In this document: positions 3,788-60,179 of the stretch, piece by piece
How the letters are laid out: each line of letters begins with the position of its first letter
Numbering within the stretch: position 1 is the stretch's first letter
NCBI GenBank assembly: GCA_002256025.1
Contig: NKIB01013282.1
Span: forward strand, 1-60,575
DNA from: Asterionella formosa
Lineage: Eukaryota
Length of the DNA: 60,575 bases
Direction of reading: 5' to 3'
The notes under the pieces: model-generated
The model's input: only the letters and a program-made list of their open reading frames with translations
Databases searched by the model: none
Told to the model about the DNA's origin: nothing
Position numbers and translations under genes: made by a program

Positions 3788-4254
3788 GTTGTTGTACTGT
3801 TCGGTACTCCGGTTTGAATTGCAACGCGGAAATGTTCTTTGTCGGAGGCAGGACAGGAACTATAGGACCTTCTCTCTATAACAATCAACGAGCTGCTATG
3901 ATTGCGCGCTCGTGTGATGGGTGGTAGAGTCAAGGGTTACCATGGATACAGAACGAGCGGGCACTCGGGTGTTGCTTTGCCCTCACTAACAATGTTCTAT
4001 TTCATCACAATAAGTTGAATTTCTAGATTTGGCAGCACTTTTTGTTGAAATTGCGTCCCGAAGCCTTCTATTGCTTTCTTGTATCCTGCAAGGACACGTC
4101 AGGGACCAAATATGCTGTAGATATGAACAACGATGGTGCAGAGATCGATTGTAATCGTTCCTAAAAGTTTTAATTGAATTATAGGTTTTCCTGGTGGTGA
4201 AGATTGTTTTCGAATTCTGTTCTTGGTACCGGTACCGGTATTCTTTTTGACTCA

Positions 4255-4905
4255 TTTGATTCGAAATGTCTTCCTCGGTTGCTTAGTACAAAGGAACATT
4301 TCTTTCATAACAAGCAATACCGGTAGTATGAAATACATTTGCTTATCATAATCTAGTTTCTTCGATTTTGTATTGACAGTGAACAGCTTGTCTGTCCATG
4401 GAAAATTTCCAACACCTTCAAATTTATCTCGGAAATCATCAATCATTGATTTCACATATTTAGTCATATCCATTCTCAACACTCCTGGAAAAGAGTAACC
4501 TAATGTCATCACCAAGAAGTAGTCATGCTAATTTCCACACAAGATCTTGACTTCACCATTTTTGTCAGAAGTGTAAATCTTTTTGATCCATTCCCAAAAT
4601 TGATCATTCACTTTGCTATCCACATCAATAGATTTTAAATCATCAATGTGCCAAGTAATTGTGTGCTCTTTGCCATTTACAGTGCGATTTGCAATGCATG
4701 GATCACGAGGTTTGACTTCAATCCAATTGACTAAATATCCTTCCAAAATTTCTTGTAATTTAACAGTGATGACTGTAACATGCCATATAGTGCCTTGATC
4801 ATCCAAACATATAGGACCTTGCTGTTTCCTTCATAAACAACATAGTTTTCAAAAGTCTCAGGGCTGAGTTCTGTCTACATATTGACAAGTAAACCTCTAC
4901 ATACT
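4255..4905 (-). pseudogene. Degenerate Ty1/Copia reverse transcriptase fragment
   Basis: Frameshifted translation gives KVLYVWMIKALYGMLQSSLL, DPCIANRTVNGKEHTITWHIDDLK, MTKYVKSMIDDF and FHT..VMKEMFLC. Confidence 0.88.
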
Positions 4906-5644
4906 ACCATATGGAATTCAAGATGTTTTTGAAAAGCAGTCAATGATTGGCAGAGCACATGATGTGGTGCTTCTGCATTTTCGAACACTTCAAGTGGTGA
5001 ACATTGGGTGATAAACTGAATATTATGAATGTATTGGCAGAGGAAGATTTTGATGATGAGGACCTTATGTTATCACAAAGATGACTACAGAAGCGATGAA
5101 AATGAAACCATCAGCAGCAGTCAATTATCATAGGGTACTATTATGAGTACTTGCCCTAGCTGTATTGCTATAAGCAAACACAAAACAACTATAGTAGACC
5201 ATATTTTGTGGTTGAGAATTTTTGACTTTCAATTTTCAGTAGAAGAGAGTTTGATGCTTCAATCATTAAAAAATATTCCAGTTTTGAGTGTACAAGTGAC
5301 TTACAATGGAACATGAACCTTGTAATCCATTTTTAGATGTTAAGATAGTAGGTTATAGGTATACTGGTACCAGTGACCTCAATACAGAGATTATTAATGA
5401 AATTCTGAAGGTTGTTCTTGATTTACTTTGTCAATATTAATCTTCCTTCAAAGAGCTTGCAGCAGGACGGCGATCCGAGAAAGGAGGAGAAAACATTATG
5501 TAGTGCTGGTGCTCTAAAAGGTCTCATATCACTAATATTCAATATTTTTTATAAACATTTACATTATGCAAAGAAAGGTCAACCAGAACTGAGGATGCCA
5601 GTTCAAAGTCCACACTAAAGAAAGAATCATGCCCCGCGCTCACA

Positions 5645-6208: not shown

Positions 6209-7343
6209 TTAGTTCGCCGTTAGGAATTGTTGGCATTGAGTAGTCCTTCTCTGAGTGAAGTACCGCTAATGAGGATGATGGAACCACGATCAAAAAAATA
6301 TTTTTTTGCGAGGTTTCGCAGAGGATGGAACAACAAGGAACACAACAAAATGTATGGTCAGGACATAGTAGTTAGCTAGGGGCTCCATATACCAGGTACA
6401 TAGTTGTCACTCCAACTTTACCAAGTATTGTACTCCTACTATGCAGTTGTTCTACGCACAGGTACCTGTACGGTATCTGGTACAAGGTACCCTGAACTCT
6501 GCATCGCTTACCGGTATCATATGTAGCTTCTTGCCATTAACGACTCGTACTTGAGTTTGAGCTATAGTGATGTCGCTCGGAGTGTCACCTATGTAGCATG
6601 GCACTACATACATATGATCATGCGCGTATCAGATGGTGGTACATTTATTGATGGAGCAATGCACCTGCAAGTTGCGGTAATTTTGATGAATCCTAGATTA
6701 TATTCTATATTTGAGCAAAATGACCGCAACTCGCTGATGGTTGCAGGATTGTGCCGGTAGGTGCATACCTGTTTGATGGAGTGAGGCACGTGGTACAAAC
6801 CGCACGATTCAAGGTAGACAGTAGGTACTGGTACCAGGTAGTTCAATCCCTATGGAGTGCAGTACATAGTATTCATCATGTGTACAGTATATACTGGTGC
6901 CAGGTGCCAGGTACCTGGTACCTGGTACTGTTAATTAATGAGAGCAATACAGGAGTCGTGACCCTGGCATGATCCAGCGATACTGCTTACAGGTAGACTA
7001 CCTGGTGACCAGGTTACCAGATTTCAGATCCGCCGACTTTGGACGGCTTATTTCTTTCTGCCTCCATGACTTAAAAACAAGGCAGATCTGAAAAGAAGAA
7101 TATTTACCGGTATTCAATTAAATTGCAAGGCACAAGAAAGCGAAGCATACACCGGTACTATGTTGGAATGATCGTATCATGTAGCACTGCGTTTGTACGA
7201 TACATACGTAGTATTAACAAATCGCATACTGATAACTCTACGTAAGATCAATGTTGTGCCTATGAAACTACCGGTAGAAAATAAGAAAGGACTTGCTATT
7301 TATCATCATACGAAGCACACATACCATAACCGCCGGACTCGAC

Positions 7344-7859: not shown

Positions 7860-8409
7860 GTCTTGTTAAACAAAGGAATCATTATTCAGGGTTGATTGAT
7901 TTCTCTTGTTGACTACAGTATACACAATCAAAAATATTAGAGTTGTGAAACATCAGATTACCACTTATCTAGTTAAACTAACGTTGGAAATGGTTTGGTG
8001 CTGTAAATGATACTGTTACCGCCATATGGGTGAAAGGAAATAAATTGGATACTACCCGCATCAAACTTTAAGTACTTTCAATTACCGGCAGACTTAAAGA
8101 ATGAAACGGAGCAACATATGAAGTCATGTAGTCAATAGGTTTACCCGGTACCAGAGCGACCCATAAAAGTGTATGTATTTGATGCAGCTTTCACATTCCG
8201 AAATGAATGGGTCCTTCTTGAACATTCTCTGTTCGAGACTATGTAAGAAAGTAGATGAATGACAGACACAACCACCATACTGGCTACTATGGTTGTATAT
8301 ACTAGTGAAACATTCGTCATGTAGGGCAGGTACACACGAGTGGAAATGTATTGCTGTTAATGCGTTCCGAGATCAACGCCAGCTTGATGAACTAGGGAGA
8401 CTGCTTCTC

Positions 8410-9903
8410 TCAGTTGGTAGTGCTTCGAGGGGGAGTGATGAGTCTAGAAGGGGCTGATGCGACTGAAGCTGATGATGATAACTGGGGTAGATTGAGTAGG
8501 GGAGCTGGTCGTGACGGACGAGAAACTGACAATCCCGAATGACTACTCATCTTTGGAACAGGTGTCCTTATCCCAGGGCTGTCAATAGCTCGAATATGGG
8601 TGGATGTCAATGCCATATGACCACTAAGACCTGTTCGGAAGTCAACGGCCACAGCAGAGAGTGCTCGATAATTTGATTGGTGAGCTGCTGCCATCGAGTT
8701 GGAGCTTCCAAATGTGAGACTTTCAAATGATAAGGAATCCATAACATTTCCGGGTTGATCGATGCTGCCCACACCAGGCACACTGTTTTGTTTGGGCTTC
8801 GTATTTGGTTTGGGAGAGTTTCCATCTGGTACGTTGCTACGAGCAGACGATTCGTTATCTCGTCCTTCCAAGCTAAGGTTGACGTTTGCAGTGTCTAGAT
8901 CCATGCTAGAAAGTTCTGCGCTGACTACAGTAGTATCGTCGTCCTGCATCAATGAAGTGTGTAGGTCACGCATAAGAGTAATAACTTGATTGTCCAATTG
9001 ACTCTTTTCAGACTTTAGCGTTCGCCGACGAACAGCGAGAGATCTCAATGCTGCTTCCAATCTACAAGCGCGATCGACGGGAGGTCCGACTATTATTCAG
9101 GAGCGGGGTATTCAAAGAATGAGAATGTGCAGTTCCTTACAATGTATAATGACCGACATAATTCGTACATCCCACCCAAACGTACCTTTTACAAGTTGCC
9201 CAGCTTCTGCTTTGATAAAGCCGTAGCCTCTAGCAAGTTTCGCCCATCCATCCTCCAGCGAAACAATCTGCACTCGATCGCCGCGCTTCAAGTGCGTATC
9301 AGTTTTCAAGTTCTGTGAGTCCATGTGGAAGTATCTAACTAGCGTATCAACGTCTTCTTCTTCCGGCACATCAGAGAGGGGTCGTTGGTAGGCTGACTTG
9401 GAGGGTTGACTAGGAAAGACAGATGCTGTGGCTTTCGTAATGACGTAGGTCCCGCACATACCAATGGCGAGAGACGTTCCCACTCTGATGCACTCCTCTT
9501 CCGTGTCGCCCAGTGATTGGCAGTGCCGAATCGGACTAGATTCCGGCGAGTCCTGACTCATGAGCGCCGTCGCTTCCATCAAGGACATCAAGACGACGTT
9601 CTTCGGAAGGGGAAGGCGTCGACTGACAGGCGGCGATTTGTGCTCTGGTGTAACCGATGCCGACGATGTCCAGCCAGGTCTTACTTGTGACGGCCCTCTG
9701 CGGGTCGGTGTGGGTGGCACAGGCCTCGTTGCGTTGGGCAGCATGATGGACAGCGCCGTTCGACACTCCATGCACTTGTCCAGCCTGTTGGCGCATTCGT
9801 TGCACACGTAGGTGTGGCCGCACGGTAGAACCACTGGATAACGCTGCTCAGCATCAAACTCCTCGATGCAAACGATGCAATGAAAAGAGAACGGTGAAGT
9901 CAT
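8410..9903 (-). CDS. RING-finger protein with SH3-like module and coiled coil (2 exons, intron 9090-9185)
   Basis: RING motif CIVC...LPCGHTYVCNEC...CMEC and SH3-like LKRGDRVQIVSLEDGWAKLARGYGFI. A GTACG...TAG intron joins the two ORFs in frame (VK-VGPPVDRACRLEAALR). Confidence 0.88.
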
Positions 9904-11578: not shown

Positions 11579-12045
11579 TTATTTTTTCTGGGGAATTATT
11601 ATAGACTTGATCTTTGGAATTGGGATTCCGTCCGAGGGTTGTGGGTTTTGCAATCCCAGTTCACCAAAAATATCAAGAATCTCTGTGGTAGACAGTTGAT
11701 CGGATGCTCCAATGTTGGTCAATAGAGTTTGTAATTCAGCAACGGAAATGACACCATCTTTGTTTTTATCGGCTGCTTCTAAAACTTCCTTGACGAATCG
11801 AGTAGGAATGTCTTGGCTGTAGCTATTGATGTGATGTGTAAGAGAGATACAGAGAGAGCGTGTCAGATTGTAGTAATGGTAATGATAGCGGCGAATGTGT
11901 ATTGTTTCACTTACTTGGTCTGCCGATATTCCTCCATTATTGCTCTCAATTTATCAACGGCGGGTGATCCGCTCTCACTAAAATGAGTGCGACACGCAAT
12001 CATGGAACGAATCACTCGAACAGTGGTGCTGTGGCGCATCATCAT
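11579..12045 (-). CDS. Small EF-hand protein, 124 aa, possible mitochondrial presequence (2 exons, intron 11823-11914); absent from the ORF track
   Basis: Manual splice GTAAGT...TAG gives MMMRHSTTVRVIRSMIACRTHFSESGSPAVDKLRAIMEEYRQTN-YSQDIPTRFVKEVLEAADKNKDGVISVAELQTLL...QKK*. DKNKDGVISVAE is a canonical EF loop. Confidence 0.85.
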
Positions 12046-39760: not shown

Positions 39761-39883
39761 AGCTGGATCAGCAATCATAAACAGAAGAGTTATTTTTGAA
39801 AATGGCAATGGACTATTAATCAACATTACTTTAATAGAAATCAAACAAAATTTGGCTCCACCTACAAGTTACCTTAGTGTAGC

Positions 39884-40139: not shown

Positions 40140-40165
40140 ATCACAAGAACTTCACTCCAGCGTTT

Positions 40166-40317
40166 AGTAGTACTGGTATGACAGTACCAGCACAATGCTG
40201 CTGGGGGTACTAAGCAGGCAGGTCTATGGCACCAGGCTGTGCATTCATGTACACAGCTAACTGCCAGTACTTCTGATCTTGCTACTGTCATTTCTCTATC
40301 TTTCCCTTAGGAGTCTG
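40166..40317 (+). mobile_element. Fragment of the Copia 5'/gag region (inverted copy of 58608-58761)
   Basis: TAGTAGTACTGGTATGACAG...TTTCCCTTAGGAGTCTG matches the reverse complement of 58608-58761 with few differences. Confidence 0.85.
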
Positions 40318-43824: not shown

Positions 43825-43897
43825 AAATTTCTCCGGGGCCATTTTAACTCCTACGATTTTCTCCGGCTCAATTTCCCTTTTGTGCGGCTTGATCTAA
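43825..43897 (+). repeat. Dispersed repeat module C (second copy 47699-47755)
   Basis: AAATTT.TCCGGGG.CATTT...CTCAATTTCCCTTTTGTG.GGCTTG.TCTAA occurs at both sites. Confidence 0.7.
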
Positions 43898-45049
43898 AAA
43901 TAAGGCCGTTGCTAGCCGTTGACCCAAACTAACCAAAACCCAAAAACTTATTGTTGGATTGGTTTTGGTTTCGGTCAAACTGACACAAAAACGATGCCAT
44001 CGGTTTTTGGGAAATCCTTTACCGGTATGTTGTCAACCACCCATCTATTGTGACGTAGGATAACAAAACCATTATAAAAAAAGTAAAATATTTCTGTTAG
44101 ACTACTCTTATAAATGAAATATTATTATTCCTATTTGGGAATAAGTGTCTTTTTCCCGCAATTTGAGCGATGCTGCTGTCTTGTCATCCAACTACCGTTC
44201 ACACCAGTATGTATGTACCGGTATACTATAGTGTCGTAGTATATATATCTACTCCGAGTAGATATTACCAGGTACATAACAACCACAAGAACATAACATC
44301 TGTCGATCACTGCTCAGCATCCTCGATCATGGCGCCAGCACCCCTTCCAGCCAAGAAAGCTCTTTCTCCCTCTGCACAGCAAAAGGAGTTGCAATGAACT
44401 GTTGCTGTTCTGGACAAGATATCAGCAGGAGGGCCAACAATGATGATCAAAAATCTTCAGAATAAAATATATCTACTCTATCATGGCGATCCATCTGTGA
44501 AAGGAAGCATTGGATATTTGGAGTCTCTGCTGAGGGGAAGGGGTCAGTTAGAAGACCTTTGGAGTAGGAGAGGAGCTGAATACCAATGTCCCAGGAAGAA
44601 ATGCAGATCGCGTTTCTGCCTTTGATTTGGTACCAGGTACCACACGTATGATTTCCAATGATGATAATCCACTGGTACCCGCACTGGATATAGTATCGGC
44701 CAACCAGTACACCCAAAGAAATGTTACATGTTTATCCAATGTGGCCGGTGTGGGTTTGCAATTCCTCGCACAATCAAATGGAGGTGAATATTTCGCAATA
44801 GCCAATCAGTACATATATAATACTGTGTGCACTTAGAATGGAATTATTGGTACTGGAAATTTTACGACTAAATATTGCATCACAAGACTATCATTCCAAT
44901 GATGACGTTTCAGCGCTAAGTGGTTCTGATTCCGACATTTTGGAGACCGTAGAAAAGACCGATTTTGTCGAATTTTTGGACAACGATAGCTCAACGTTGG
45001 CTGGGTCTGAAGCCAATTTAGATACACAGCAGGTAACCTTCAAATAGGA

Positions 45050-45755
45050 TCAGTAGTTAACTTCTGGCGAGAAACTGCTGAGAGGAACTTAAGTTTTTTT
45101 AACTATGCCAAATGAAGTGATTTCCCCCGAAATTTCTAGTCTTTATTATAGCATAGTTTAAAAACCGAAGTTTCCCTCTGCAGTTTCTCGCCAAATCCTA
45201 GATCCTGACGATATATAGCGTTGACCTTTACCCCTACTTTTGTCAATGACTGTATCTAAGCATATGTAAAGAGTGTATATTGGTGAAAGCTCCATTTAGC
45301 GATACACATTTGTGTTTTACTCGTAAGAAGTGTGTGTTTGAGTACTCTGACTCAATATTTTTTAACCCTACCTCTAAACTAGGGTTGAAATGCAGGAACC
45401 ATAAGGTTGCAGCCCCGGAGTTACACATTACGAGGTCCGTTTTTTGCCAAAATAATTTTATAACGTACCTTAATCAACGCATTAAGCACAATTATATAAA
45501 ATAGTTAAAGGTAAAATTAGCTTTCACCAATACAACCACTTTGTTTACCGGTATGCTTAGATACAGTTATTGGTCGACTTAGGGGTATGTTCTATCTTCG
45601 GATATGGTAAGGACCTCATTTCTGGAGAGAAGTGGCAGTTGTCCCTCTTGGAATCGTAACTATCCAAAAAATAGTCATAAAAGGGGGCCATCAAGCTTTT
45701 TAAAAAATCTTCGAGGGATAACTGCCACTTCTCTGCAGAAGTTAAATGCTGAAGT
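45050..45755. mobile_element. Two abutting module-A transposon ends in opposite orientation sharing ATAA (45401-45404)
   Basis: Junction reads ...GCAGGAACC|ATAA|GGTTGCAGC... The right arm contains reverse complements of left-arm blocks (AGCTTTCACCAATAC, ATGCTTAGATACAG, CAGAAGTTAA). Confidence 0.7.
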
Positions 45756-46592
45756 TATAGGGTACACGGCTATCTATTTCATTCTTCATGAAACCCCGTA
45801 GATGTAGAGCAATCCTCCTCCAAAAAGTCGACCCGATCGGCTTTTTCAACAGTCGCTAAAATATTGGAATCAGAATTTGTATGTGCAAAAACGCTCTCGT
45901 AGTATACTTAGAGTCTTGCGTAGGTATGTTTCGCTGAATAATTCTCAGTCCGAAAAGACTCCAGGGTAAGTTCCTGCGTCACTACATATATTCTGATTGG
46001 TTGAATTGAATTTATTCACCTGCTTCAGATTCGCTGAAGTATCCCGGTCTTGTAAAATCCCGCCAGTCACACTTGAACCACACGTATTAGATGTACTGAA
46101 TACTGGTTGGTAAAATTAGTACCGGTACTACCGGTAGTGCATCCTGTCTTCCATCATGATGAACCAAGATTATGTACTACCTGGTACTCCGAGTACCGAA
46201 ATACCGTTACTCTAGGACTCCGGTACTGGCCCACCAGGACAACGAAGAGATTTCCCTAACACTGGACCTAAGTAAATTTCATAAGTTCAAAAGGATAGCG
46301 GACATTTTTCTAAGATGTATTAATATGAAAATTATTTCCGTGCTGTGAAAAATGAGAGAGTTCTTCCATTAAAAAAAAACAAAAATGATATTTAAACATT
46401 TATACTTTTTCTACGTTGCTGAAGGATGTAGACATAATTTTGCTCAACACCAAAACACGTACATATATCAGGAGTATGCCAACATGTATGCTCATGGCTC
46501 TTGTTCATACGTCAATTATGAATCTACGTTGCTGTATGTAGTTTCAATATCACTCCACGCACAAAGGAATATATCGGCATGTAAATCCCCCT

Positions 46593-47080
46593 AAAGGTTG
46601 CAGCCCCGGCTTAACCCTAGTTTGGAGAAAAAATCGCTAGGGTTGTAAAAACGGCATGGAACAGGGAGTTTCCTACTATGAATTCCCATGATTCGAGTGT
46701 CCATTTGAAAATTTGAATTAAATAGGAATCGGCGCCAGAGTGATAGAGTTTCATTTTAAGCTTGCGGCCCCGGCTTAACCCTAGTTCGGAGAAAACATCG
46801 CTAGGGTTGTAAAAACGGCGTGGAACAGGGAGTTTCCTACTATGAATTCTCGTGATTCGAGTGTCCATTTGAATATTTGAATTAAAAAGCGGCGATCTCA
46901 ATTTTCGTTGTCATTATTAGTGTTATTACTTTACTTCTTTTACAATTGTATTTCTCCATGTCATTCTTAATACAGGTAGCAAGTATTTAGCAAAGCGTCG
47001 TTCTCTATTTTCATGGAGATTATTCGTATTTTCGTCATGGTCAAGGTTGCGACAACATGATGAAGGATTCTCCAGCTGCT
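46593..47080 (+). mobile_element. Non-autonomous element end: tandem-duplicated terminus (164-bp period) followed by module B copy 3
   Basis: AAGGTTGCAGCCCCGGCTTAACCCTAG... occurs at 46594 and again 164 bp later. 46888-47080 matches module B. Confidence 0.75.
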
Positions 47081-47088
47081 AACAGCCA

Positions 47089-47198
47089 CTACCTGAGTTC
47101 TATTGCGTTTTGTATGTACAAAAGAATCGCAACATGATAACTAGCTACCTGTTTTCTCTTGTGTTTTGTATGTACAAAAGAATCGCAACATGATAGCT
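47089..47198 (+). repeat. Tandem duplication, ~56-bp unit x2
   Basis: CTACCTG...GTTTTGTATGTACAAAAGAATCGCAACATGATA.CTA occurs twice. Confidence 0.88.
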
Positions 47199-49658
47199 AA
47201 ATAAGTATATACTAGTGCCTACGAGGACAAAATAAAAATTGAACAACGGCAACCTGCGTTCAATTGTTGAATGCGCAACCCCAAAAGTGGCGATGGTGGG
47301 AAGGACGAAAATGATGGTATACTTGTTTTGAGGATTGTAACTGTTAAATATCCGGCGGTAGTATGGTCCATGTAGGTGCAACAACTGTGGTAAGTATACC
47401 AAAAAACAATTATTCTATTTATGTTATTTTTATGAAAGTGGCTTCTTGTATTCGGTTCCCCCAATTTGTTCAAATCGCCGGCCAAATGAAAAAGCATTTG
47501 GCGATATGTACATGTACCCAATGTATAAATATGTGCTGAATTGGCTTCGATTATTTTATTTAAAATGCTAAACATTTAATTACAAAAACAGCATTTCTGT
47601 TCACATCTATGTGACTCATTAAAAACGCATTTATCGAGTTAGCCGACCCTCACGCAGAAAATGGGTCCGTCTGGGCGAAAAAAATTGCAGTAAATGTAAA
47701 AATTTATCCGGGGTCATTTTTGCCTCAATTTCCCTTTTGTGTGGCTTGCTCTAAGCTACAGAGCAATCCATGAATAGGACGTGGTAATATAGATGTACCG
47801 GTTAGCCAATTAAGATCGAAAGAGGTTTTTGGGCTTTTTCGATTTTCACTGATGGCTATAACATCTCGAGCAAAATGTAAATGCATGAGGACCAATTTTT
47901 CTTCGAACCATTGTCTGCAAATAAAAAGTAGCATGCATATAGGATCAAGGGTATGGTACGCTAAGTGGCACAGGATTTCATATGTATGATAATTTTTGGA
48001 TCAAACTATGATGAAGGTATCCTGTAGCTATGATGATTTATTTATATTTTACCAAACTTGAAGTATGATGATAAAAAGAACATTATCATCACACAATGTA
48101 TATCAACTGATCAACAACATTTCTCATCAACATCATAAACCTTCTCATATTATTTCCAATTCTCGTGATCGCCCGATGTAAATTATTACTACAACGCATC
48201 CTAAAATCAGCTAAACTCTATGCTATCATGTGAATTGTTTCATCGTAAATCTATCTTAAACATGATCATAATACTAATCACAAGCATTGTTCAAAAAGGA
48301 TTGGAATGGATCGTTATATAATTGACATATTTAACAGGATTGGATTAACAAATTTAGCAATGCTATTTTTGATTCTGCAGGCCAGCAACCCAACATTTCT
48401 CTCTCTACTCGGCTAAATGTATATTTTTCCTATCTCGCCCTTCTCTTCCTCTATTCTGAATCTTGTGCCAAGCAGTGCCTTTACTAATGTTGTGTCTCTT
48501 TCCCTGTTGTCAGTGTCATTCTGAACTCGCCGACTATTCCGGTGTTTGATCGGTTTTATTGTCCTATGCAGTTACAGTAACAATGAGAAGGAATGACTTG
48601 TTAGCTAGACATGTTGCACTGACACAACATCACGCCATTCCATCGTATCCTCTTGCTTGCTTCACTTACCACAGCCAAATCAAAGCAAGTGATGCATAAG
48701 TCTGTAATAGTAAGCAAATTGTCAGTAAATTCTTGAATGAGTAAGTTTCAGGTTTCCAATGTTGTCGAATAAAACTTACCGATTCATTTTCGGTAGCTTA
48801 ACTTTGAGAAAAGGTAAACGTGGCGTGTCCGTCAGTTATGTTCCATCAGAAGTGAATAGGTCCAATGACAAGAGTGCTTATCAATTTTGTTTTGTTAACC
48901 ACGGTGCTACCCAACAAGCAAAACGAGCTGTTGAATCAACTAAGAAAAAAGGAAATGTGCATTTAGTTTACAATTTTTCGTTGTCCTGCTTCCCAACGAT
49001 TGTCATCCAAGTACCACATTGATGGCTTCATTACCTTAAACATACTCCATCCTTCGAAGGCGCAATGTGTCGACGCCACAATGTTTTTCGTTATTGCGTA
49101 AACTTTTCCTTTCTTGTCATGTGCTTTCCTACAATATTTCTTTTCATGAAGCAGGCATTGTTTGTTAACATGACAGAACGCACGATTTCAAATATATTTG
49201 CCATGTATATAGTTATAAAATTTGTAAATACATAAATATGTCAAGTGCTGTCGTACATTTATAAAAATCAAAGGCACTCTCAATATGGAATGTCTGGTAT
49301 TGTTGAGATGATCATATTCGCATATCGCATATCGTGCATCGAAAATATTCAATGCACGATATGTCCATTGTTTTCCACGACTTCGTGTACCGGTACTGTT
49401 TCTAAAATTTGTTTGCATCGATATTTTCTACGCCCGTTGGAACTAATTATTTACCGGTAGACCATTCAATTGTTGTAAGTCATAACCCATTTGTATCATT
49501 ATTTATATGCAAGGATTTTGGTAGCAAATTGTTTAAGCATCTTTTTTGGGCGGGAGTTCTTCATGTGTACCGGTACATCATACGACAATAAAATTTTATC
49601 ATATATACCTACTGGTATACAGAGTAACAGTATCAGGTAGTAGGAAGTGATATAATGG

Positions 49659-50123
49659 GGGTAGTCAGAGTAGTAAGCGAGCAACAGAACACCATATGTT
49701 CATGACTGTTGCTACTGCAGTGGGACAGTAAATCATCATAGTTTTGGGATCGTATGATCATAAAATTGAAAAAGGATAGTCGGAGTAGTAAGTAAGCAAC
49801 AGAGCACCATATGTTCATGACTGCTGCTACTACAGCGGGACATTAAATTATCATATTTTTAGGATCGTATGATCATAAAATTGAAAAAAGGTAGTCGGAG
49901 TAGTAAGCAAGCAACATAACACCATATGTTCATGACTGTTGCTACTGCAGCAGGACAGTAAATCATCATAGTTTCGGGTTCAGGATTGTATGATTGTAAA
50001 ATTGAAAGAGGGTAGTCGGAGTAGTAAGCGAGCAACAGAACACCATATGTTCAAGACTGTTGCTACTACAGTGGGACAGTAAAGCATCATAGTTTCAGGA
50101 TCGTATAATTGTATAATTGAAAA
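49659..50123 (+). repeat. Tandem array of four ~115-bp units
   Basis: Units begin GTAGTC(A/G)GAGTAGTAAG at about 49661, 49776, 49891 and 50012 (periods 115, 115, 121). Similarity covers the whole unit and there are no unique spacers. Confidence 0.95.
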
Positions 50124-52269
50124 CAAGATATGCTATTACTCAAACTCGGTTCTGATTTTGTATATGCTAATGTAAATAGCACTGTTGGGTCTCATGGTAT
50201 TATATCTAGACAGCGTAAAATATTATAGGTAGTGGCTGATGATTCATTTCATTGTAGCTAGCAACACCTGATTTTAAAATTATCGAACTTTAAGGAAGAC
50301 AACGACAAAAGTTATCTAGTAGTACAATGTCTTCAAAAAACCATAAAGAGGTTCATGGAAACAAGCGACATATGGCAAATACTGCCGGTAGGGAACAAAG
50401 AAGCAAGTAACAAAATGAGTTAACAAGACAAAGAAAAGCGAATAGGCAATTATCCAAAGGAACCCAATCGGCGACAGGGAGTAAGCGGGGGTACTACCCC
50501 ATCATTGATGGGGACACTCACATAATTGATACTGGCTGAAAGCGATGATGATGTTTCTTTTTCAGTTGTTGATACAAGGAAAATGGCTCCTGTTGATGAT
50601 ACCATTAAAAACTCCCGAATGCAGATGGACAAAATGGTACCATATCATAAATTTTCGAATCGCACGGACCAACACCAAGTACATGACAAACTGAGGGAAA
50701 AACATTTTGCACTTGCCAAAGGATATTATGGATATAGATGACATTTTTTAGGTTGGTGTTCAGCCTTTATCGTTTTGCGCAGTCACAGGACATTGACAGG
50801 GTAGGGGAAGCCAGGGATACCAAGTCTGGCGTGATGTTCTTGATCCAGTGTATTTTATAGGCAGGACAAGCCGTGGAGAACCATTTTTAACAGGAGACAA
50901 ATCTGGTGTGACCAAATTTCAACTAAGTCTTCGGGCACAGTGTGAATTGCAATCACGTTTTGTTGGTTCGCTGATCAATGCCAGTACAGAAGCATTTTGC
51001 TTCTTGGTGCTGAAAAGAAAAATTCCGATTACAACAAAAACATTTGGGTTGATGAAATTTCAGAGAACGATATTCGTCATTCTACTGATTTTGTCGACAT
51101 TGGTGGGAAACCACTTATCAAAAAAAGTGTGAGGGAAGAAAGTTCATTTTCAAATGGTCTCACTGATCAATGGACTGATGATTTACTCGTTTATTATAAG
51201 GAAATCTACACTGGACTTTCACAGAACAATCGATCTGAATGTGGAAGGAATCCTAGTAGTGGAATTGCTACCACCCCCTACTTCCACCACAAATATCATC
51301 TACCCACACTCATACTTCTCATTTCCCAACGTAAGTGAAGAGGATATGCAACAATATGTTGAACCACTTCAACCAAATGTTCCTGAGAAGAATATTGATT
51401 ACAATGACCGCATTAATCAACGGGACATTGATGACGACGTTGATTTTGAATGGATCTAATAGAATCCAATGCATACTTAGTAGTTACATAATAAATATAG
51501 TTAGTGTGAAACTTCTACAATGCACAAGCCATATCATAGATGTAAGGAAAACATTGATGCTGCTCTATACTACTTGTAGTGGCGCTGTACTGTATGTAGC
51601 TGTATACCTCCATTTTTACTACTATGGTGGAGTGATAATTTCATGACTCTGTATCGTCCAGCACAGCATGATCGGAGTGATGCTAAATTTATTATAATTA
51701 TTATTTCATTTTCATTCTATCCTGTTCATATCCTGACTTGTTCATCATTTGAAATTTGCAATGTCTTTGCGGACATTGCAATGGTGTTATCTGTGTAACT
51801 ACAAATTTCGGAAGAACAAATCTCCATCTGAGTCTCACAACCGAAATTGTAGCAACCGTGTTTTTTATGCATATGGTCACTGTCGAAATTGCATGCAAGA
51901 CCATTGAGTTCCTGGAATACATAATGAAACTATGTATTGCGGTAGTGCGCGCATCGAATCATTCAAGGAAAGAAGTTAATGGCAGTGTAACTGCTGCAGC
52001 ATTTAGGGAGAGTAGACAACAAGAAGAGATTATGTGTCCTATCCTTGAATCAAGTGGCCACAATCATCCATTTCATGACAACAGCTACGAATCAGTTTAT
52101 AACAATATTCAGTCATAACAAAACGAACAATTGATACTAAAAACTCTCCAAGGATTGAATTCAGAAACCGTGCAATATTCAGATTTCCAAGATCACACCG
52201 GCTTTCTCCCTGAAAATGCAATGGAAATGCCCCTTCCTCCTCAATTTCAACTTCCAAGTAAACATTCTC

Positions 52270-53078
52270 TAAACATGCGCGCATCCAATCGAATAAGAAC
52301 TCATGTTATTCCTTAACAAGAATTACCTTCCACCAGTTTACTTTGATCATCTAATGAAATGGCTGTACAAGGCAAAAGCAATGAAATACTTTGATGAAAG
52401 CAAGGTATCAAGCTCCATCCTACCAGACTTTGAAGAAAAGCATGGATGTTTCATTTCCGCCCACATTAGCTGGTGGTCAACTGTTGACCAAACAAATACA
52501 GATTGATAACAATTCAAACATGATCATCCCACGCACACTCCATTATATCGAACCAGTACAGCTCATGGCAGGATTGCTACGCGATTCCGACATCATGCAA
52601 CATTTTGTATATCACCCGCAAGTGAACCTTGTGCAGAACGCATATATGAAGAAGTAGCTCCGCAACTTGGTTTGAAAATGCATTCAACATTTCTCCTGCA
52701 TCAGAAAATGGAGTGTTGAAGACAGGGTGTTTATTTGTTGCCCTAGCAGTTTTCAGTGATGGTTCACCTATTGATAAACACATGAAACTTTCCGAGCATC
52801 CGTTTTTGTTGACAATGTTAAATTTAACGTTAGAAAATGGAGTGTTGAAGACAGGGTGTTTATTTGTTGCCCTAGCAGTTTTCAGTGATGGTTCACCTAT
52901 TGATAAACAAATGAAACTTTCCGAGCATCCGTTTTTGTTGACAATGTTAAATTTAACGTTAGAAGGAAGGAAAAAAGTTGATGGATGGCGATTGGTATCT
53001 CTTTTGCCAGACCCCCACATTGAAGTCAGTGATCTGGAGAAACAAATGAATCTGGAGGGAACTGTGACTCCTTTGTAG
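52270..53078 (+). pseudogene. Plavaka/CACTA(CMC)-type transposase relic, truncated after the first catalytic-Asp region
   Basis: YIEPVQLMAGLLRDSDIMQHF...RIYEEV..ATWFE, then ALAVFSDGSPIDK.MKLSEHPFLLTMLNL..EGRKKVDGWRLVSLLP, which fits the Plavaka-like pattern l..Dg..d....p...Tl.N....R....w..l..lP. Frameshifted. Confidence 0.7.
52703..52964 (+). repeat. Near-perfect in-frame 129-bp tandem duplication inside the transposase relic
   Basis: AGAAAATGGAGTGTTGAAG starts at 52703 and 52832. I see one substitution between the copies (His to Gln). Confidence 0.95.
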
Positions 53079-54119
53079 GAATAGAGTCTTCATCCGCCGC
53101 GAAGAACAACTGTTTGGGTTTCCTCTTTGAAAGAAATCTTTCCTTCTTTTCAATCTCTGCCACTTTTGTATCGGCATACTTCATTATTTTTTCTGGAATA
53201 TTATGAATCTTTTCAAATTTATAAATTTTTTGAGTGTATTCAAAGGAATCTTCGTTTGATTTCATAAGTTTCTTCATCTTCTTTTCAGAAAAGATGAAGT
53301 CGTGTAGTGTATAGTTACGTGTCTTGTTTGACTGATCCTTTTCATGAAATCCATGAAATGCCATTTGGAAAGTTTTCAAAGGGCCAGAAGACTATGATGT
53401 AAAACAGTGGAAGGGAAACGCGGAGCTTTTTGCGGGGCTTGTGGAGTTGCAGCTGGTGTGATGGTAACTGAGTGTAGTTTTTGTTGAACAGACCACAGCA
53501 GTGTAATGTGCATGTTCCGCCAGCATAGTGTTAACACAATACACATGCCGGCATATATATAGCTAAAACAACGAAAGACGACACGACAATGAACGTAATG
53601 GCTGGTTGTTGAGGATACTGGTATGTGATACTAGGCATCAATCCATGTCACAAATCACATTATAGTGATGTACATATCAACGCATCCGTATACTCAGATC
53701 CTATCCACTGTATAATATTATCATATTCACTGTTGGCTTTTACTGTATACATTAAAAGACGAATATGTATATTATTTAACATACTTTATGATTGATTGAT
53801 TTATTTTCTATGATGTATTGATAACACTTAAAATCATATTTTATCGTATTTTATTATCATTGTATTATTTTAAAATGATCATATTTTGATCAAAATTATA
53901 TCATAAACATTTTAAAAAATCATCATAGTTCTATGATCAATGTATCATAGCTATGTTATATACTTTACTCAATATAACGTATCATACTTTGGTGATATAT
54001 GCATCGATATAACCCTATCGTGAAATCACATTATCATAATTTTTCCAGCGGCAAACCCCAAAAATGAAGGAAACTTGTCCCTCTATTGATAAGGATGACA
54101 TGGACACCGACTTTTCCAG

Positions 54120-54420
54120 GAGCAAACAACAATGAAGAGAGCCAGGCCACTTGTCCCTCTTTTGATGGTAACAAAGATGCGGACAAGTTTAACAGTGAAT
54201 ACAAGAACAACATACCAATGAAAACAAGTCGACAGTGTGTGTACGCACATGGCAAGCAGGTTTGAGGCAACGGACAGTTCCAACAAGCAAATGACAATAC
54301 GGATATCAAATATTTCCTACGAGCAAACAACAATGAAGAGAGCCACTTGCTTTCGCTCTCTTGATGGTATCAAGGATGCAGACAAGTTCAATGGTAAATA
54401 CAAGCAAGTACATCATGCCA
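54120..54420 (+). repeat. Imperfect direct repeat (~100 bp, 201-bp spacing)
   Basis: GAGCAAACAACAATGAAGAGAGCCA...TTGATGGTA.CAA.GATGC.GACAAGTT.AA...AATACAAG at 54120 and 54321. Confidence 0.85.
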
Positions 54421-55106
54421 AATGCAGAAACGAGCGAGCGATAAAAAAATGAAATTCTAATCAGAATCATTCTATAACTATAGCTATGTAGACAGTAGTC
54501 TGTTACATTTTCGTATCTCCTTCTATGCTGAATCTCAATAGTAGATGTAGTATCATGTGAGAATTGAAAATGTCAACGAGAACAAGTAGAATTTGTTTGT
54601 TTACGGGTTGATTGGCAAGATTGTAATGCTGGTGGTGGACGAAACGGATTTACAATTTGCGCTGTGTGTGGAACCATTACGAGTTCGAATGATTTCTTCT
54701 TTGTAAACTCTTAATTGAATGATTATGAACAAAGGTTCACTGCACATGACAATTACTCAAAGATATAATGATCACTTGACCAACAATTGAAGACGTTATC
54801 GCAAACAATCATTCCACTTGTCATCGCTAATATTTCGTTGTTGTTGCAAAAATCGGAGTGATGACAGATGGAAATGATGAGCCTAATTACATTACTTGAG
54901 CTGGTACATTATCCTACCAAGAAATTCGAATATAGGAATCTGATAGAAATAAAACATATAATAATTAAATATACATAGTCAAAAGGGTTACTATTTAAAT
55001 TACAAGGGCATTTAGCAAAAATATTAGATGATATAACGAAAAATTATGATCAGATGATCACAATCCTATGATGCATCATGGAAATATGATATTTTTTATT
55101 TTCAGA

Positions 55107-58100
55107 TGTTGGGAGCATGAGAGAATCGAGAACACTGGTGAAACGCAAAGGCAATATTGGGATGAGAGTTGTTGCTCAACAAATAAAGAAGCATACCTAT
55201 GACAGATCGATAACTCCAGGTTTCAGTCATGGCAAGCCCATCAACATCAGACCCCAGCAATTCTTGTGTGGCAGGAGTCCAGGTTGGGTTGGCAGAGTCG
55301 AGACCTCCTAGCTAAGGTAGAGATAATGCGGCAGTGGAGGCATGATTCTTTGAGAGTCCCAAGAAACTGCACGACGCGAACGAGGCTTCCATTCTGCATA
55401 GTAGAATCCAGGACATACATGGGACTTCCCCACCATACTTGGAGATCATTGCATTTGTGGGTGTGCCATTTAGTGCCTGAGAAAATGTCAAGAGGTGCCA
55501 GGCCATTTTTCCTGTTAGGGGGATGATTAATATGAATGTACACAACAGCCATAGGCCAGAGGGTAGTATCAGCAGTGTCACACCAGCAGATGGCAGCATG
55601 CAGCATCATACTTTACGCCATAGACATAATGGTTTGAATGTTCTGCTCTGCAACACCATTATGATGATGGGCACCTACTCCAGCAAAGCGACTAACTTGT
55701 TTGAAAGCTGCCAATTCTGCAATATTCCTTATCAGTGAAAGCCTTTCCATTGTCTGAAAGGTAAGATTGAACAATAAGAACTACAGAGTCACGAGCAGCA
55801 GCCTCAAATTTTTGTTTTGAAACCAGAGTTTCATGAGAGGTCAGAGAGACTCAATGTTCCACATGAACAAAACCGGAATCATGGTCAACAAACAGACATC
55901 CTCTTGAGTACATTTGCTCTTGAACCGTTTTTCCTTTTGAATCATAGTGTCGTCCCTTAGCGTGACAAACAAAGTGATCGACTGAGACTTGCTGCCCTGG
56001 TAGGAGGTCTCCTTTTTTAAGTGCACCACAGCTTGATGGAACAGGCGTAGAAACACTGCTGTACGTTGGTTGAAGTTTTGCCTTTCCAAATTTGCAGGAG
56101 GCACAGCGAGGTAGGACACAGTTGGATGCTGAATGGTGCAGATTCTTTTGCCCTTCACTTGTTGCAAGGGCTCCTGATCTCAACAGTAATTGTATTGATT
56201 CAAAGTGTATATGGCCAAGCCGAAAGTGCCAACGCAATAGTTCCTTCTGAGCCTCGTTGGTTAGATTTTGATTGTTGGAATCGGTAACACAGAGGTTAAG
56301 CTCTTGAGCATATTGATTGACATCCACTTCATTGTATCCATAGCTGATAGGAAGGTTGTTGGTTGAGAAAGGGATAGCAATGTCTGGTGCTCCACCTCAA
56401 CAGATACGAATATGAGAATCAGACTCAACTTGACCATAGGCTGGAGTTTTAGATCCAACAAAACCTTGGATATAAGATGGCCAACTGAGGAGTCGTTGGT
56501 GAGCTTCAGGAGTATAGAAAGTAGAGAGCTCAAGACAATGGAGAGTACCATCCACCTGACCTTGCCTTGACCTTCAATTGATAATCCTGCTGCTAGTCCT
56601 TTCAGTGTGACAGGTGTTGCCAAGGGGGTTATCCCATCAACAAAGTCCTGAATATTGTGCGTGAGTAACTGTACTGAATGCTCCTGTGTCCCAAATAAGG
56701 ATAACTGGTGTGCTGCTGAAGAGAGCCCAAGGACAGTAGTTGGACTTTTAGTGGCAAGACAACAAAATGGACTTGGGACTGGATTACTGGCAGCAATTGT
56801 TGGTGTATAGAGAAGACTCTGAGCCTGACACCAATGTTCAACATTTGATCTGAATAGGTTTTGTATAACCTGCAATCTGGGATGAGTAAGGCACATGGGG
56901 AGTCTTGAGAACAATTGACTGTGGAACAGGGTCCGTGGTTGAGATAAAATTGGGAGGCTTCGTCCTGATAAAGTCAGACCTGTCTTGTCGAAGCCGAAGT
57001 GGATGTTAGCGAGAGTTAAATAACATAAGACTGAAAGGTTGCTGGAGTTGCTTCTGATGTCGATAATAACGGCGACGTGTAGACCAGTGCAGCAGCTTGT
57101 TGGCAGGAGGGTGGGGATGAGCATGGTGCATGAAGTGAAGCCAGAGCACTTGAGAGAAGACAACCAACCAGAAGCACACACAAGGTCCCAGGGAAGCAAG
57201 GACATGGTTGTGATTCAGAGACTGATAAGAGAGGGAGGAACTCAAAGGAAAGGGTCAATCTCTGACAAAGTATCCAAAGAAGAAATGAAAGTGGATGGGG
57301 GCTCCCCGAACCCCAAGTCAAAATTGAGTTGCACAAATTCCAAATCCATCATTGACACCAGCAAGGTTTGCACTTATAACAGGTGCTTCAATGGCAGGAG
57401 CACCAAGTGTGGGGGCAGCAGGAGAGGCAGAAGAAACCGCATTTGGAGGTTTTACATGAGTAGATCCAAGATGCGTTGCTTGAGGTCCAAAGTCCCACCA
57501 GGCCTTTGCGACACTTGTTACAGAAGATGAATCTTTTACACCAACAACTTTGACAGAGTTGGCTCTCCATGCTTGAGTGCTACTTCACGCCAGTTGTGCT
57601 TCTTATGATCTGTGGTCTTGGGAGGAGAAACAGGCACATTACCACTAGGTTTAGCAGCAATGGCTGCTTGAACCAGAAGGGCATTGAATGATGCTTGGTC
57701 CATTCCAGCATAAAATAGGGAAGGGGCCTGTTGTATATCCTTTACAGTGCTGGCAGGGGGACCAATCACCATTGTCCAAGAGAGAGCGGTAGGCTTCTTC
57801 AGCTAGATCAAGGATAGCTATGTAGTGAAAACCCTTTTTGACCATGAACTTCTTGGATGAATCTTTGGATAGGTAGGCTGAGTCTGAGAGAGCAGAGTCA
57901 AGGTCAAGACGCTTGGTGGGATGCCAAATGGCACGAAAACTCTCAACTGAAACTTGACAGAGTGCCTTACTAATGATTGCCAACACTAACAGCCATTCAA
58001 ACTGATGGACACTAGGACCCATTCAAACTGATGGGCATTTTCAAGTTCACAGCGAATTCTGCGGATCTTGTTTGCATAGAGTGAGACATTGCTTTCATCA

Positions 58101-58761
58101 GCTTCCTTAATTGGAGACAGCTGCTTGAGTTCATCCTTCTTTCGGTTGAATCTCTTGACAGATCCACTGCTAACCAGACGAAGGATGCGCCTCCAGGTAA
58201 CGCCAGCAAAGTCACCTGGTTCCTTGAGGAGTGAGGGATCAAGTGTGGATTCAAGATTCAATCGAGCAGTTGTTTCATTGTCCTGGTCATAAGAATCAAA
58301 TTTGTTCTTGTAGTACTCAGATTCATCAAGGACATGGTAAAGGGTGACCTGCCCGAAGTTCTTGATGACATTGACCATATTGGTGTCATCACTGAGGCTC
58401 TTGACATACATGATGGAGTCCATACCTGTGAGTTCAAGGTGTGCCAAAACCTTAACACCATAGGAGTATAGGTCTAGATCCTTGCCATCCTTTTGAAACA
58501 GAATGAGAGGTGGAACTGTGAGGTAGTTCCAGTTCCTTGACTGGCTGATCACTGGACTTAGTTGGACAAGAGCAGTTGGGAGAACGCTTGATTGCTTTGA
58601 CATTGGCCAGACTCCTAAGGGAAAGGTAGAGAAATGCCAGTAGCAAGATCAGAGGTACTGGCAGTAAGCTGTGTGTGAATGTACAGCCTGGTAGTACCAT
58701 AGACCTGCCTGCTTAGTACCCCCAGCAGCATTGTGCTGGTGCTGTCATACCAGTACTACTA
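55107..58761 (-). mobile_element. Degenerate Ty1/Copia retrotransposon (gag, protease, integrase, RT C-terminus) with internal deletion
   Basis: gag-like LELTGMDSIMY...; protease IWDTGA; LLRWHFRLGH...CASC; integrase PGQQVSVDHF, AHHHNGVAE, MMLHAAICW, LWPMAV, WGSPMYVLD; then directly the RT tail WSYRSVIGMLLYL...IAFAFHQCSRFSHAP. Many frameshifts; no LTR identified. Confidence 0.92.
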
Positions 58762-60179
58762 TGCACAAAACCTGGTACCCAGTCTGGTAGCATCACTAAA
58801 TTCCCGCCGGAAGTATCATCATGGTAACTGCCTGGTACCAGGTACCACCACAGAACCATCGTCTGATGGCCGCTAAGCATCACTAAATTCCTGCTGCCAG
58901 GAGCCGGTATGCAACAAACCAGTAGTACCTGGTAGTCAAGTGCTGCTCCAGCAGTATGGCGCTGCCGTGATTGACAGGGCAGAAGCGATTCAGCGCTACT
59001 GTTGGTGATATACCGTCATTGCTCCTGCTCCTGTAGCTACTAGCTAGTACACAAATGACCAGTATACTGACAAGTAATGTATGTATTTTCTACAAAACAC
59101 AGTCTACATATTTGTCTTTACTACATGCATGAGGAGCTTTTAATCTTCAAAATTTGATGCCAAAATATTAAATGTACATTATTGATTTCTACTCTTTGTT
59201 GTCCATTTCATATGTATTTATCATTTTTGTAGCGCATTCTTACTATTCTACTTCTAGAGTTGCCGTCATTGCGCTCCATGGCCCGCCATGTAAGGTGGGG
59301 CGGTGGAAAGGGTTGGTTGGAAGTCACTTCCTTGTGTGGAAGTAGTTTAAAAAAGTTGTGGTAGCTTTGTTCTTGGTTCAGTTCTTTATGACTGCACTTC
59401 TTGTGTCAGCCGGAGAATAGGATGGTGAGTGTGGATTGGGTTAAGGATTTCCCATTTAGCCCCATTTCTGGTGATTCAATTTGAAGTCTCTATAACAATT
59501 GGTGATTCCAGGGCTTCCAACTAGTTGTTTTTTGTTGTTGTCTTCATTATCACAAAAATTATTGTTTTGAGCAGCCCATACACCTCTGGCGCAATTTATT
59601 CATCAGTGACTTCTTCATTTCTCTGTCTTCTCCTTCATTCTTGTTAATGTTTAGCATATCGCCATTCTTGTATTCTTCTGCTTCTTGCAATGTAGCTAAT
59701 AGCGCTCACTATAGTAGTGAAAAAGGTGTTAAGCTTCTTCTTTTATTTTTTCTTGATACTGTCTTTTCCTGGTTTGTGTTGTGTTGATTCCATTGCTGTG
59801 AATTCCCCAACTGTTTGTAGTGTTTGTGGAAAATGCCAAATCGACATCCATGCAATCACTAGTTTTCACCGCTCCTGCATTAATCTTTGTTTGCTTTTCC
59901 ATCTCCTCCTCTTTCTACATTCTCTTTCTGTCGGATTTCATTACCATCTTATGGTGCTGTACCACATGTATGAGTTGTTCTTTCTTTGCCTGGTTGGCTG
60001 CTTGGATAGCACCTTTCGTCATGGTGAATTGGTCGTTTTTAGGATTTCTTAACTATCGGGATCCGGAGGTCCCTGTAGCTTATGTACCACTAAATTCTGT
60101 GATCAGCGCTGCAGTACTGTAGTATCTTAAACTCGTCTTTATACTTGACCAAAACGTTTGTTGTCCATTTCAATGTTTT

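Follow-up and report, generated by a model that had tools for sequence, protein, structure and literature searches.

Contig NKIB01013282.1 from the genome assembly of Asterionella formosa (GCA_002256025.1) was analysed along its whole length of 60,575 bp, which is referred to here as the window; it has a G+C content of 42% and is nuclear DNA of a freshwater pennate diatom, and 13 studies have yielded metagenomes or metatranscriptomes of freshwater and lakes in which near-identical DNA is found. The open reading frames (ORFs) of the window are long and nearly without introns; by Pfam their products include an ABC1 kinase, a FAD-dependent oxidoreductase, an acyltransferase, an AAA ATPase, a RING protein and a double Cpn10 protein, among others. 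The ABC1 kinase is 100% identical to an environmental protein, and its best named relatives are from the pennate diatoms Grammatophora (66%) and Asterionellopsis (63%). The spacers between these genes carry a very short palindromic unit in which a CCGG or CCWGG core (W being A or T) is bounded on both sides by TA. As far as literature searches show, a gene-excluded, 5'-concentrated, TA-chained 8-bp palindrome is apparently new for a eukaryotic nuclear genome; searches on diatom footprints and mariner elements, palindromic and short insertions, miniature transposable elements with inverted repeats (MITEs) and TA, and freshwater diatom genomes gave no account of the motif among the papers listed, and the matches listed for TACCGGTA are primers and barcodes.

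The palindrome TACCGGTA occurs 51 times in the window, compared with 0.37 expected from 100 dinucleotide-preserving shuffles (shuffle maximum 2) and 0.84 expected from base composition; TACCWGGTA occurs 42 times (25 with A and 17 with T at the centre), compared with 0.30 in dinucleotide shuffles. The enrichment over background on which the original prediction was built is therefore real. TACCGGTA is the most over-represented 8-mer of the window, its sub-words head the 6-mer and 7-mer lists, and its excess is 60- to 140-fold with all eight positions fixed; it is thus, like the HIP1 word of cyanobacteria, an octamer palindrome over-represented tens- to hundreds-fold. A census of all TA-N(1-7)-TA words singles out the cores CCGG (51, 0.84 expected), CCAGG (25, 0.24 expected), CCTGG (17, 0.24 expected), CTGG (the word TACTGGTA; 15, 1.2 expected) and CCAG (the word TACCAGTA; 7, 1.1 expected), and no other core stands out; 15 permuted cores of matching composition (GGCC, GCGC, GGACC and others) are never found between TA and TA in the window. 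TA is present on both sides of 51 of 136 CCGG sites, 42 of 135 CCWGG sites and 51 of 61 ACCGGT sites; the next-commonest flank classes, TG and CA, are single transitions from TA. The strict units number 115, about 1.9 per kb, and fall into 93 clusters, of which 77 hold one unit, 11 two, 4 three and 1 four; strict units cover 918 of 31,686 non-ORF bases, or ~3% of the spacer. They are spread throughout the range first proposed for them, 4227-58850, but also lie beyond it (188, 1286-1449, 58926 and 60489).

All five words of the original prediction occur, but the family reduces to two primary forms, TA-CCGG-TA and TA-CCWGG-TA, plus CpG decay. CpG transitions turn TACCGGTA into TACTGGTA or TACCAGTA, and these two together are seen 22 times where 2.3 are expected; the next one-mismatch class, TACAGGTA/TACCTGTA, has nine members, the remaining classes have 1-6 each (1.2-2.3 expected), and the 11 non-CpG-transition neighbour classes total 39 against 18.5 expected, with a maximum of 9. 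The window is depleted in CpG (observed/expected 0.73-0.77) with a TG/CA excess of 1.21-1.30, both within and outside ORFs. Because only the CpG-transition variants are common and the window is CpG-depleted, TACTGGTA and TACCAGTA are read as decayed TACCGGTA rather than as a separate product. A CpG mutation is carried by 22 of the 73 members of the CCGG family (~30%), which suggests copies that were made exact and then drifted, as opposed to a site under selection at all eight positions; the one-mismatch variants track the mutation spectrum and have no binding profile, and this neutral-looking decay supports a mutational origin of the units. At the central position of the 9-mer, 42 cases have A or T and 2 have C or G. 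The surroundings of the 43 single TACCGGTA look like those of any TA in the window (-1/+1 bases: G 35% against 28%, C 26% against 27%). The KpnI-like word GGTACC shares its TA with a unit in 52 of 67 copies; the 15 solo copies are at chance (10-16 expected), and the word is therefore a by-product of the units and not their seed. CTGGTACCAG is found 16 times and CAGGTACCTG six times (binomial p = 0.05).

Units are rare in exons, as had been proposed. Only 5 of the 115 lie within ORFs of at least 120 aa (0.17 per kb compared with 3.47 per kb outside, a 20-fold depletion), and none of these is in verified host coding sequence; they are the unit at 188 in a retroelement integrase, those of the chain at 12949-12969, which is in a 5' untranslated region (UTR) and in frame by chance, and one at 19892 that follows the kinase stop codon. 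Upstream of 14 oriented ORFs, flanks of 500 bp (7.0 kb in all) contain 59 units (8.4 per kb), compared with 12 units (2.1 per kb) in the 500-bp downstream flanks (5.8 kb in all); at least one unit is found within 500 bp upstream of 13 of the 14 genes, a promoter enrichment of the kind looked for in binding sites. From 1844 to 43560, outside the listed ORFs, 69 of 90 units are closer to a 5' end than to a 3' end, and the 3'UTR sequence covered by RNA contigs has one unit in 1,352 nt. The statement that nearly every spacer carries units thus holds for the 5' flanks of 13 of the 14 genes, but three 3' or convergent spacers (7866-8412, 21472-21690 and 31092-31279) have none. Some units are elsewhere: those at 1286-1449 and 24462-24605 lie 3' of genes, and those at 37893-41263 lie in repeats. 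The retroelement-rich 46201-60575 has a density of 0.63 per kb, compared with 2.29 per kb elsewhere in the window, and the densest places are two divergent promoter spacers, with 14 units in 28833-29681 and 11 in 11951-12990. Three genes have a unit 26-40 nt past the point where the RNA contig stops (28870, 37494 and 41733), though contig ends are not transcript starts.

Neighbouring units often share a TA and so form chains (Table 1). All seven chains that had been named are present, at 6826-6840 with 6912-6927, 12340-12390, 24132-24153, 24429-24488, 29433-29676, 34364-34437 and 37550-37647. At the chains, Tandem Repeats Finder reports short arrays with a period of 6, 7 or 14; head-to-tail runs of identical units, as in a microsatellite, are not the rule, since CCGG, CCAGG and CCTGG occur together in chains and most clusters hold one unit. 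The block at 6898-6927 has the centres A, A, T, T and is mirror-symmetric with two TA>TG changes. In the acyltransferase/AAA ATPase spacer, inverted arms of 19 nt (~29436-29454 and 29655-29673) lie 226 bp apart and both contain the irregular unit CCAGGG. This segment, 29433-29676, was considered as a candidate MITE, with terminal inverted repeats (TIRs) and a target-site duplication round a multi-copy interior, and rejected; a single-copy contig of data set X1, introduced below, covers the left arm and the interior to 29610 at a depth of 910 with 0 differences. The chain at 12949-12969 lies ~140 nt before the ATG of gene 7 at 13107.

Table 1. Units, chains and unit-bearing duplications along the window
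Feature	Position	Strand	Details
TACCTGGTA	188-196	+	codes LPGTG within intact retroelement integrase frame
Units between retroelement integrase ORF and 3' end of a gene	1286-1449		five strict units: TACCAGTA-CCGGTA chain, two single TACCGGTA, TACTGGTA
14-bp tandem duplication holding a unit	1407-1434		off-phase
(CCGGTA)2 chain TACCGGTACCGGTA	4227-4240		upstream of ORF 1844-3859 (-); period 6, 2.7 copies, 100% match
Chain region	6826-6927		TACTGGTACCAGGTA, then gCCAGGTgCCAGGTACCTGGTACCTGGTA; chains 6826-6840 and 6912-6927
Divergent spacer, EF-hand gene (-) / gene 7 (+)	12154-12672		eight strict units; chains 12340-12355 and 12376-12390
Mixed chain CCGG-CCTGG-CCGG	12949-12969	+	transcribed 5'UTR of gene 7 (ankyrin and synaptobrevin domains)
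Twelve strict units in 474 bp	24132-24605		chains 24132-24153 (CCGG, CCTGG, CCAGG), 24429-24451 (T, T, A) and 24571-24585
Five units upstream of DUF3593/DUF2499 gene	26413-26689		chain 26669-26689 (CTGG, CCAGG, CCGG)
Divergent promoter spacer, acyltransferase (-) / AAA ATPase (+)	28870-29676		14 strict units and many degenerate
Seven units	34302-34583		all 83-364 bp upstream of ORF 31280-34219 (-)
10-bp tandem duplication holding a unit	34362-34382		off-phase
Perfect 30-nt palindrome of four units	37550-37579		CCTGG, CCTGG, CCAGG, CCAGG; ~180-200 bp upstream of ORF 36459-37373
Units upstream of highly expressed gene 41861-43060	40636-41740		TACCGGTA at 41707 and 41733; RNA contig start 41769
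16-nt perfect palindrome TACCTGGTACCAGGTA	43768-43783		one of four copies in the window
TACCGGTAC-TACCGGTA	46120-46136		9-bp off-phase tandem duplication of a unit; no TA-sharing chain

The contigs aligned to 24000-43999 came from three DNA data sets, each of a different study (X1, X2 and X6), and from an RNA data set (X8); the survey of indels in the DNA contigs rests on 12 of 46 indel rows. Tens of contigs in each DNA data set match a chain and then run into unrelated sequence; those running off at 37581/37582 number 58 + 29 (X1), 47 + 22 (X2) and 39 + 20 (X6). Agreement of the loose ends with a consensus is 0.35-0.44 at chains, the summed contig depth there is 5- to 250-fold over the single-copy level, and at 24132-24605 many X1 and X2 contigs end with unrelated flanks. 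Since contigs leave the chains into unrelated flanks at raised depth, the chains are present genome-wide in the species and break short-read assemblies. Over 37556-37834, one X2 contig is longer by 7 letters and otherwise identical, which is a difference of one heptamer between populations; other X2 and X6 contigs have 3-19 gap letters. An X2 contig is also without 28966-29045, 80 bp of a divergent promoter spacer, a segment that holds one TACCGGTA and ends inside another; it was considered as a simple TA-duplication event, which it does not fit.

The stop-to-stop ORF of gene 7 extends upstream through the chain at 12949-12969, which reads LPVPGTG; this peptide is unchanged in all five other same-species records covering it (four spliced transcript-derived proteins and one genomic ORF), and three other residues of the leader of ~70 residues vary among the five. 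The chain is transcribed in the 5'UTR and common to strains. Two repeat pairs within the window, one of ~400 bp (38740-39132 and 45010-45405, 86% identical) and one inverted (40165-40317 and 58608-58761, 92% identical), have no unit-sized indel between their copies; a TAC difference of 3 letters within a GGTACC can be read in more than one way. When the ATG-to-stop ORFs of spacers were looked up by exact sequence, 1 of 10 was on record, in a cluster of one, and a similarity search with ORF 12116-12388 gave no match. One scan of JGI metagenomes with the acyltransferase protein found only a 40%-identical relative (contig L001) and no same-species contig; L001 has one TACCGGTA in 20 kb, which is no enrichment. 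In IMG/VR a chain 20-mer had 0 matches and a 16-mer had 10, a chance level with no local enrichment, and 596 billion bases of prokaryote genomes gave 11 chain-word matches, none diatom-like.

The units are tentatively considered, at somewhat less than even confidence, to be sequence-specific gains of 6 or 7 bp at TA, similar to transposon footprints, that were then expanded locally by duplication and fold-back copying and worn by CpG decay; they would be products of a mutational process at the level of DNA, as opposed to selection on point mutations. This is favoured because the eight positions are exact, TA is obligatory, single units stand in ordinary context, the 9-mer centre is W, the variants are mutation-like and the chains share their TA. 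The putative process would add CCGG+TA (6 bp) or CC(A/T)GG+TA (7 bp) at a TA, leaving TA-core-TA as a TA-duplicating cut-and-paste element with 5'-CC...GG-3' ends would do on inserting and then excising; the seeds would be insertions made at TA by an enzyme of the transposase type. By analogy, CC(A/T)GG could result from two CC-ended overhangs with one unpaired A per strand, and CCGG from the same join with no extra base; the central W would be either an A that faces another A unpaired at the join or a single untemplated A. Events would be concentrated in accessible DNA at gene 5' ends and purged from coding sequence. The growth of such seeds into chains may have involved slippage between the two TAs, short tandem duplications out of phase with the unit, and fold-back (strand-switch) copying, which across GGTACC palindromes would flip W; units would decay mainly through CpG transitions to TACTGGTA or TACCAGTA. 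That the process is recently or currently active and new to science, writing CCGG or CC(A/T)GG into the TA of accessible DNA at the promoters and 5'UTRs of a diatom fast enough to account for strict units in ~3% of spacer bases, is possible but rather doubtful; its agent might be a transposase, domesticated or present in very few copies, or else a nuclease whose breaks are repaired with a fixed filler.

Several results weigh against insertion at TA. No TA-flanked element with non-chain TIRs beginning CC, as the original prediction would have it, is found in the 60 kb; a search for TA-flanked 14-nt inverted ends within 3 kb matched only the chains themselves. By Pfam, none of 72 ORF translations has a DNA transposase domain, and the only mobile-element domains are a retroelement integrase fragment and a gag_pre-integrase remnant; the missing donor and transposase stand beside 115 supposed scars. 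The interpretation as TA scars thus keeps the TA bounds, the sequence specificity, the ordinary flanks of single TACCGGTA and the W centre, but is left without a CC-ended element or a transposase in the window. The minor footprints to be expected are at background (TACCATA 7 against 5.3, TATGGTA 7 against 5.6, TACCATGGTA 1), as are TA..TA cores of 1-3 nt in the window generally; the CCGG core has 4 nt (51 units and 22 decayed), and the CCWGG core (42 units), with 5 nt, exceeds the 2-4 bp quoted for Tc1/mariner footprints. Most of the 42 CCWGG units read GGTACC-W-GGTACC (35 are preceded by G at -1, 33 are followed by C at +1), and CCWGG units make up 22 of 38 chain units compared with 20 of 77 single units (Fisher p = 0.002); a single process of insertion at any TA predicts neither bias. 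The strong 5' bias is just as much in keeping with a functional promoter motif. At chains, the mirror-symmetric blocks and the 9-, 10- and 14-bp off-phase duplications speak against insertion as sole builder; together with the inverted arms that share CCAGGG, they are the reason for holding that ordinary small duplications and strand-switch copying help build chains. Two copies of TACCGGTA, at 38065 and 38207, lie within a high-copy repeat and have no well-supported 6-letter gap among the indel rows listed; they may be ancestral to the repeat. A gain or loss at a TA was not seen directly in the contigs compared (12 of 46 indel rows), and the chain at 12949-12969 is unchanged among strains, though its seven residues say little about constraint.

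The main rival is a cis-regulatory palindrome of promoters and 5'UTRs, with TACCGGTA and GGTACC-W-GGTACC as binding sites of a putative dimeric protein of this diatom lineage (half-sites TACC and GGTA at a spacing of 0 or 1); selection would keep the sites abundant and slippage would multiply them locally. This is a serious alternative, though on balance an unlikely one. The palindromic form of the motif suits a dimer, and the presence of units before 13 of 14 genes, the fall in density from 8.4 per kb upstream to 2.1 downstream and 0.63 in the retroelement-rich 46-60 kb, and the 69 of 90 units nearer a 5' end are all as a promoter motif would have them; the units just past RNA contig ends agree, subject to the limit on contig ends given above. 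The identity of the transcribed chain 12949-12969 in five other records agrees also, but is too small a sample to carry weight. However, graded degeneracy is normal for binding sites, and here only CpG-transition variants are common; a strict 8/8 site would not tolerate CpG mutation in 22 of 73 members of the CCGG family. As many as 14 strict units stand in an 850-bp spacer, adjacent units overlap by their shared TA so that neighbouring dimers could not bind together, and units are also found 3' of genes and in repeats. No binding factor is known for the motif, and literature searches on the octamer, diatom palindromes, short insertions and MITEs gave no description of it.

A second alternative dispenses with any special enzyme and treats the units as a self-propagating quasi-palindromic microsatellite, in which GGTACC-based hexamer and heptamer arrays grow by slippage and strand switching (hence the W flips) and are scattered by ectopic or repair-templated copying, such as templated insertion of the polymerase-theta type, into nearby breaks. 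Much of what is seen at the chains is of this kind: the arrays of period 6, 7 and 14, the mirror blocks T,T,A,A (37550-37579) and A,A,T,T (6898-6927) that fold-back priming predicts, the unit-bearing off-phase duplications, the inverted arms with their common irregular CCAGGG, and the one-heptamer difference of one population; the same 20-mer also occurs in A/T-flipping heptamer arrays of the bacterial contigs L008 and L010, where no diatom-specific agent is needed. As an account of the whole family it is nevertheless improbable, since 77 of the 93 clusters are single and slippage cannot seed the 43 single TACCGGTA in their unrelated, ordinary flanks; solo GGTACC is not enriched, and the dominance of one word in the k-mer spectrum and the W centre (42 W, 2 S, S being C or G) are left unexplained. 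The original prediction had held that slippage explains the chains poorly; the mixed chain at 12949-12969 and the dispersed single units bear this out, but slippage was given too little credit in the growth of chains.

The nuclease families that recognize CCGG and CCWGG are related. Enrichment driven by methylation or repair, through a methylase with biased T:G repair like that of the very-short-patch (VSP) system or through a site-specific nuclease with fixed-filler repair, is very improbable: CCGG and CCWGG are textbook 5-methylcytosine targets, the CpG inside the unit is hypermutable and HIP1, linked to methyltransferases in passages of PMC5861425 and PMC4390886, is a proposed precedent, but biased repair would lower the number of CTGG and CCAG decay products, of which 22 are seen, and the obligatory TA on both sides, the exclusion from ORFs and the chains are left unexplained.

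Other features of the window are recorded here for their own sake. The gene behind the chain at 26669-26689 (24962-26188, minus strand) is a single ORF that fuses DUF3593 and DUF2499, small domains typical of cyanobacteria and plastid-bearing eukaryotes. The double Cpn10 (GroES-like) protein at 16268-17234 (plus strand) is split over two ORFs in different frames with an overlap of ~100 nt, which suggests an intron or a frameshift between them. The ORF at 41861-43060 (plus strand, 400 aa) belongs to no Pfam family, and in metatranscriptome X8 its RNA contig is much the deepest of all, with a depth of ~6,800 compared with 250-1,200 at its neighbours. The 980-aa ORF at 31280-34219 (minus strand) is likewise without a Pfam match; atlas leads point weakly to Myb/SANTA-domain proteins such as Mis18-binding protein (scores 0.77-0.86) and are a lead only. 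Two large ORFs of no known family were considered as a source of the putative enzyme and set aside, as their atlas matches are diatom hypothetical proteins and the weak Myb/SANTA lead, neither a nuclease nor a transposase.

The retroelement integrase at the left edge (1-1023, plus strand) runs off the window start and has an intact frame with an H2C2 zinc domain followed by D..D..E-like core motifs. The unit TACCTGGTA within it was considered as a frame-breaking insertion and rejected, the reading frame being intact through the unit; it is a chance or ancestral instance and no insertion. A degenerate Copia-like retroelement occupies ~50800-59000 (minus strand), with a gag_pre-integrase domain at 55854-56396 and many broken ORFs. 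High-copy repeat DNA lies at 38000-41300 and 43340-44000, where the summed contig depth in X1, X2 and X6 is 40- to 600-fold the single-copy level, and self-BLAST finds few internal repeats in the window. The repeat-rich right third has tandem repeats at 47089-47199 (56 bp, 2 copies), 49659-50123 (115 bp, 4 copies), 52703-52964 (129 bp, 2 copies, 99%) and 60180-60371 (95 bp, 2 copies, 100%); the array at 49659-50123 was considered as a source of nearby units and discarded, as it excludes those units.

If the units are insertions, they would represent a mutational process that adds a fixed word of 6 or 7 bp about twice per kb of spacer, at promoters and 5'UTRs; this would be a new source of regulatory sequence and indel polymorphism in ecologically important algae and a natural read-out of genome accessibility. 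An active writing process, if true, would be a major builder of the intergenic and regulatory sequence of the lineage and a eukaryotic nuclear counterpart of HIP1. Should the units be binding sites, they would rank with the most abundant and most sharply defined promoter motifs known from algae and be of practical use in engineering diatom promoters. In both cases the unit is an easy lineage marker for freshwater metagenomes, and its chains are places where short-read assemblies break.

The closest known systems each share some of these properties. Tc1/mariner footprints also have a duplicated TA and a short core, taken as bases of the element ends, with an A/T centre; the canonical Sleeping Beauty footprints are given in a passage of PMC5224488 as 'cag' or 'ctg' between the duplicated TA. 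The 4-nt CCGG core is inside the 2-4 bp quoted for Tc1/mariner footprints in a passage of PMC7913693. However, the diatom window has no matching-end element or transposase in 60 kb, its units have a second core of 5 nt and lack the other sizes, and they occur at ~1.9 per kb, gather at gene 5' ends and chain by shared TA. The process therefore behaves like footprint formation, but the units are kept out of the Tc1/mariner family because of the lack of a donor and a transposase in the window, the 5-nt core, the absence of other sizes, the GG..CC flanks and the number of scars.

Bacterial heptanucleotide repeats are similar at small scale. The metagenome-assembled contigs L008 (~1911-2110), L010 (~1911-2110) and L003 (~2021-2110) contain heptamer arrays (GGTACCT/GGTACCA, GGTACTT, CACTAGT and others), and a GGTACCT/GGTACCA run in L008 or L010 has A/T flips at its variable base, as in the diatom chains; the bacterial arrays are isolated (11 matches in 596 billion bases), whereas the diatom units are mostly single and dispersed. 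The mobile G+C-rich clusters of yeast mitochondria and the double-PstI palindromes of Neurospora mitochondria are short GC-rich palindromes in AT-richer spacers near genes. Fungal mitochondrial GC clusters sometimes form tandem arrays that share a short AT target repeat, and the Neurospora unit consists of two 6-bp palindromes joined by TA. The yeast and Neurospora units are organellar, 18-50 bp long and have hairpin potential of their own, whereas the diatom units are nuclear and only 8-9 bp long.

HIP1 (GCGATCGC) occurs inside genes, with no exclusion from them. It is described in a passage of PMC5861425 as an 8-bp palindrome of cyanobacteria that is 15- to 300-fold over-represented. Like HIP1, the diatom word is a perfect 8-bp palindrome, the most over-represented word of its sequence, with a comparable excess (60- to 140-fold) and an unexplained origin. 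HIP1, however, is bacterial and tied to specific methyltransferases, whereas the diatom word is eukaryotic and nuclear, is excluded from ORFs (0 in verified coding sequence), and is accompanied by a +1 variant and by chains that share their TA.

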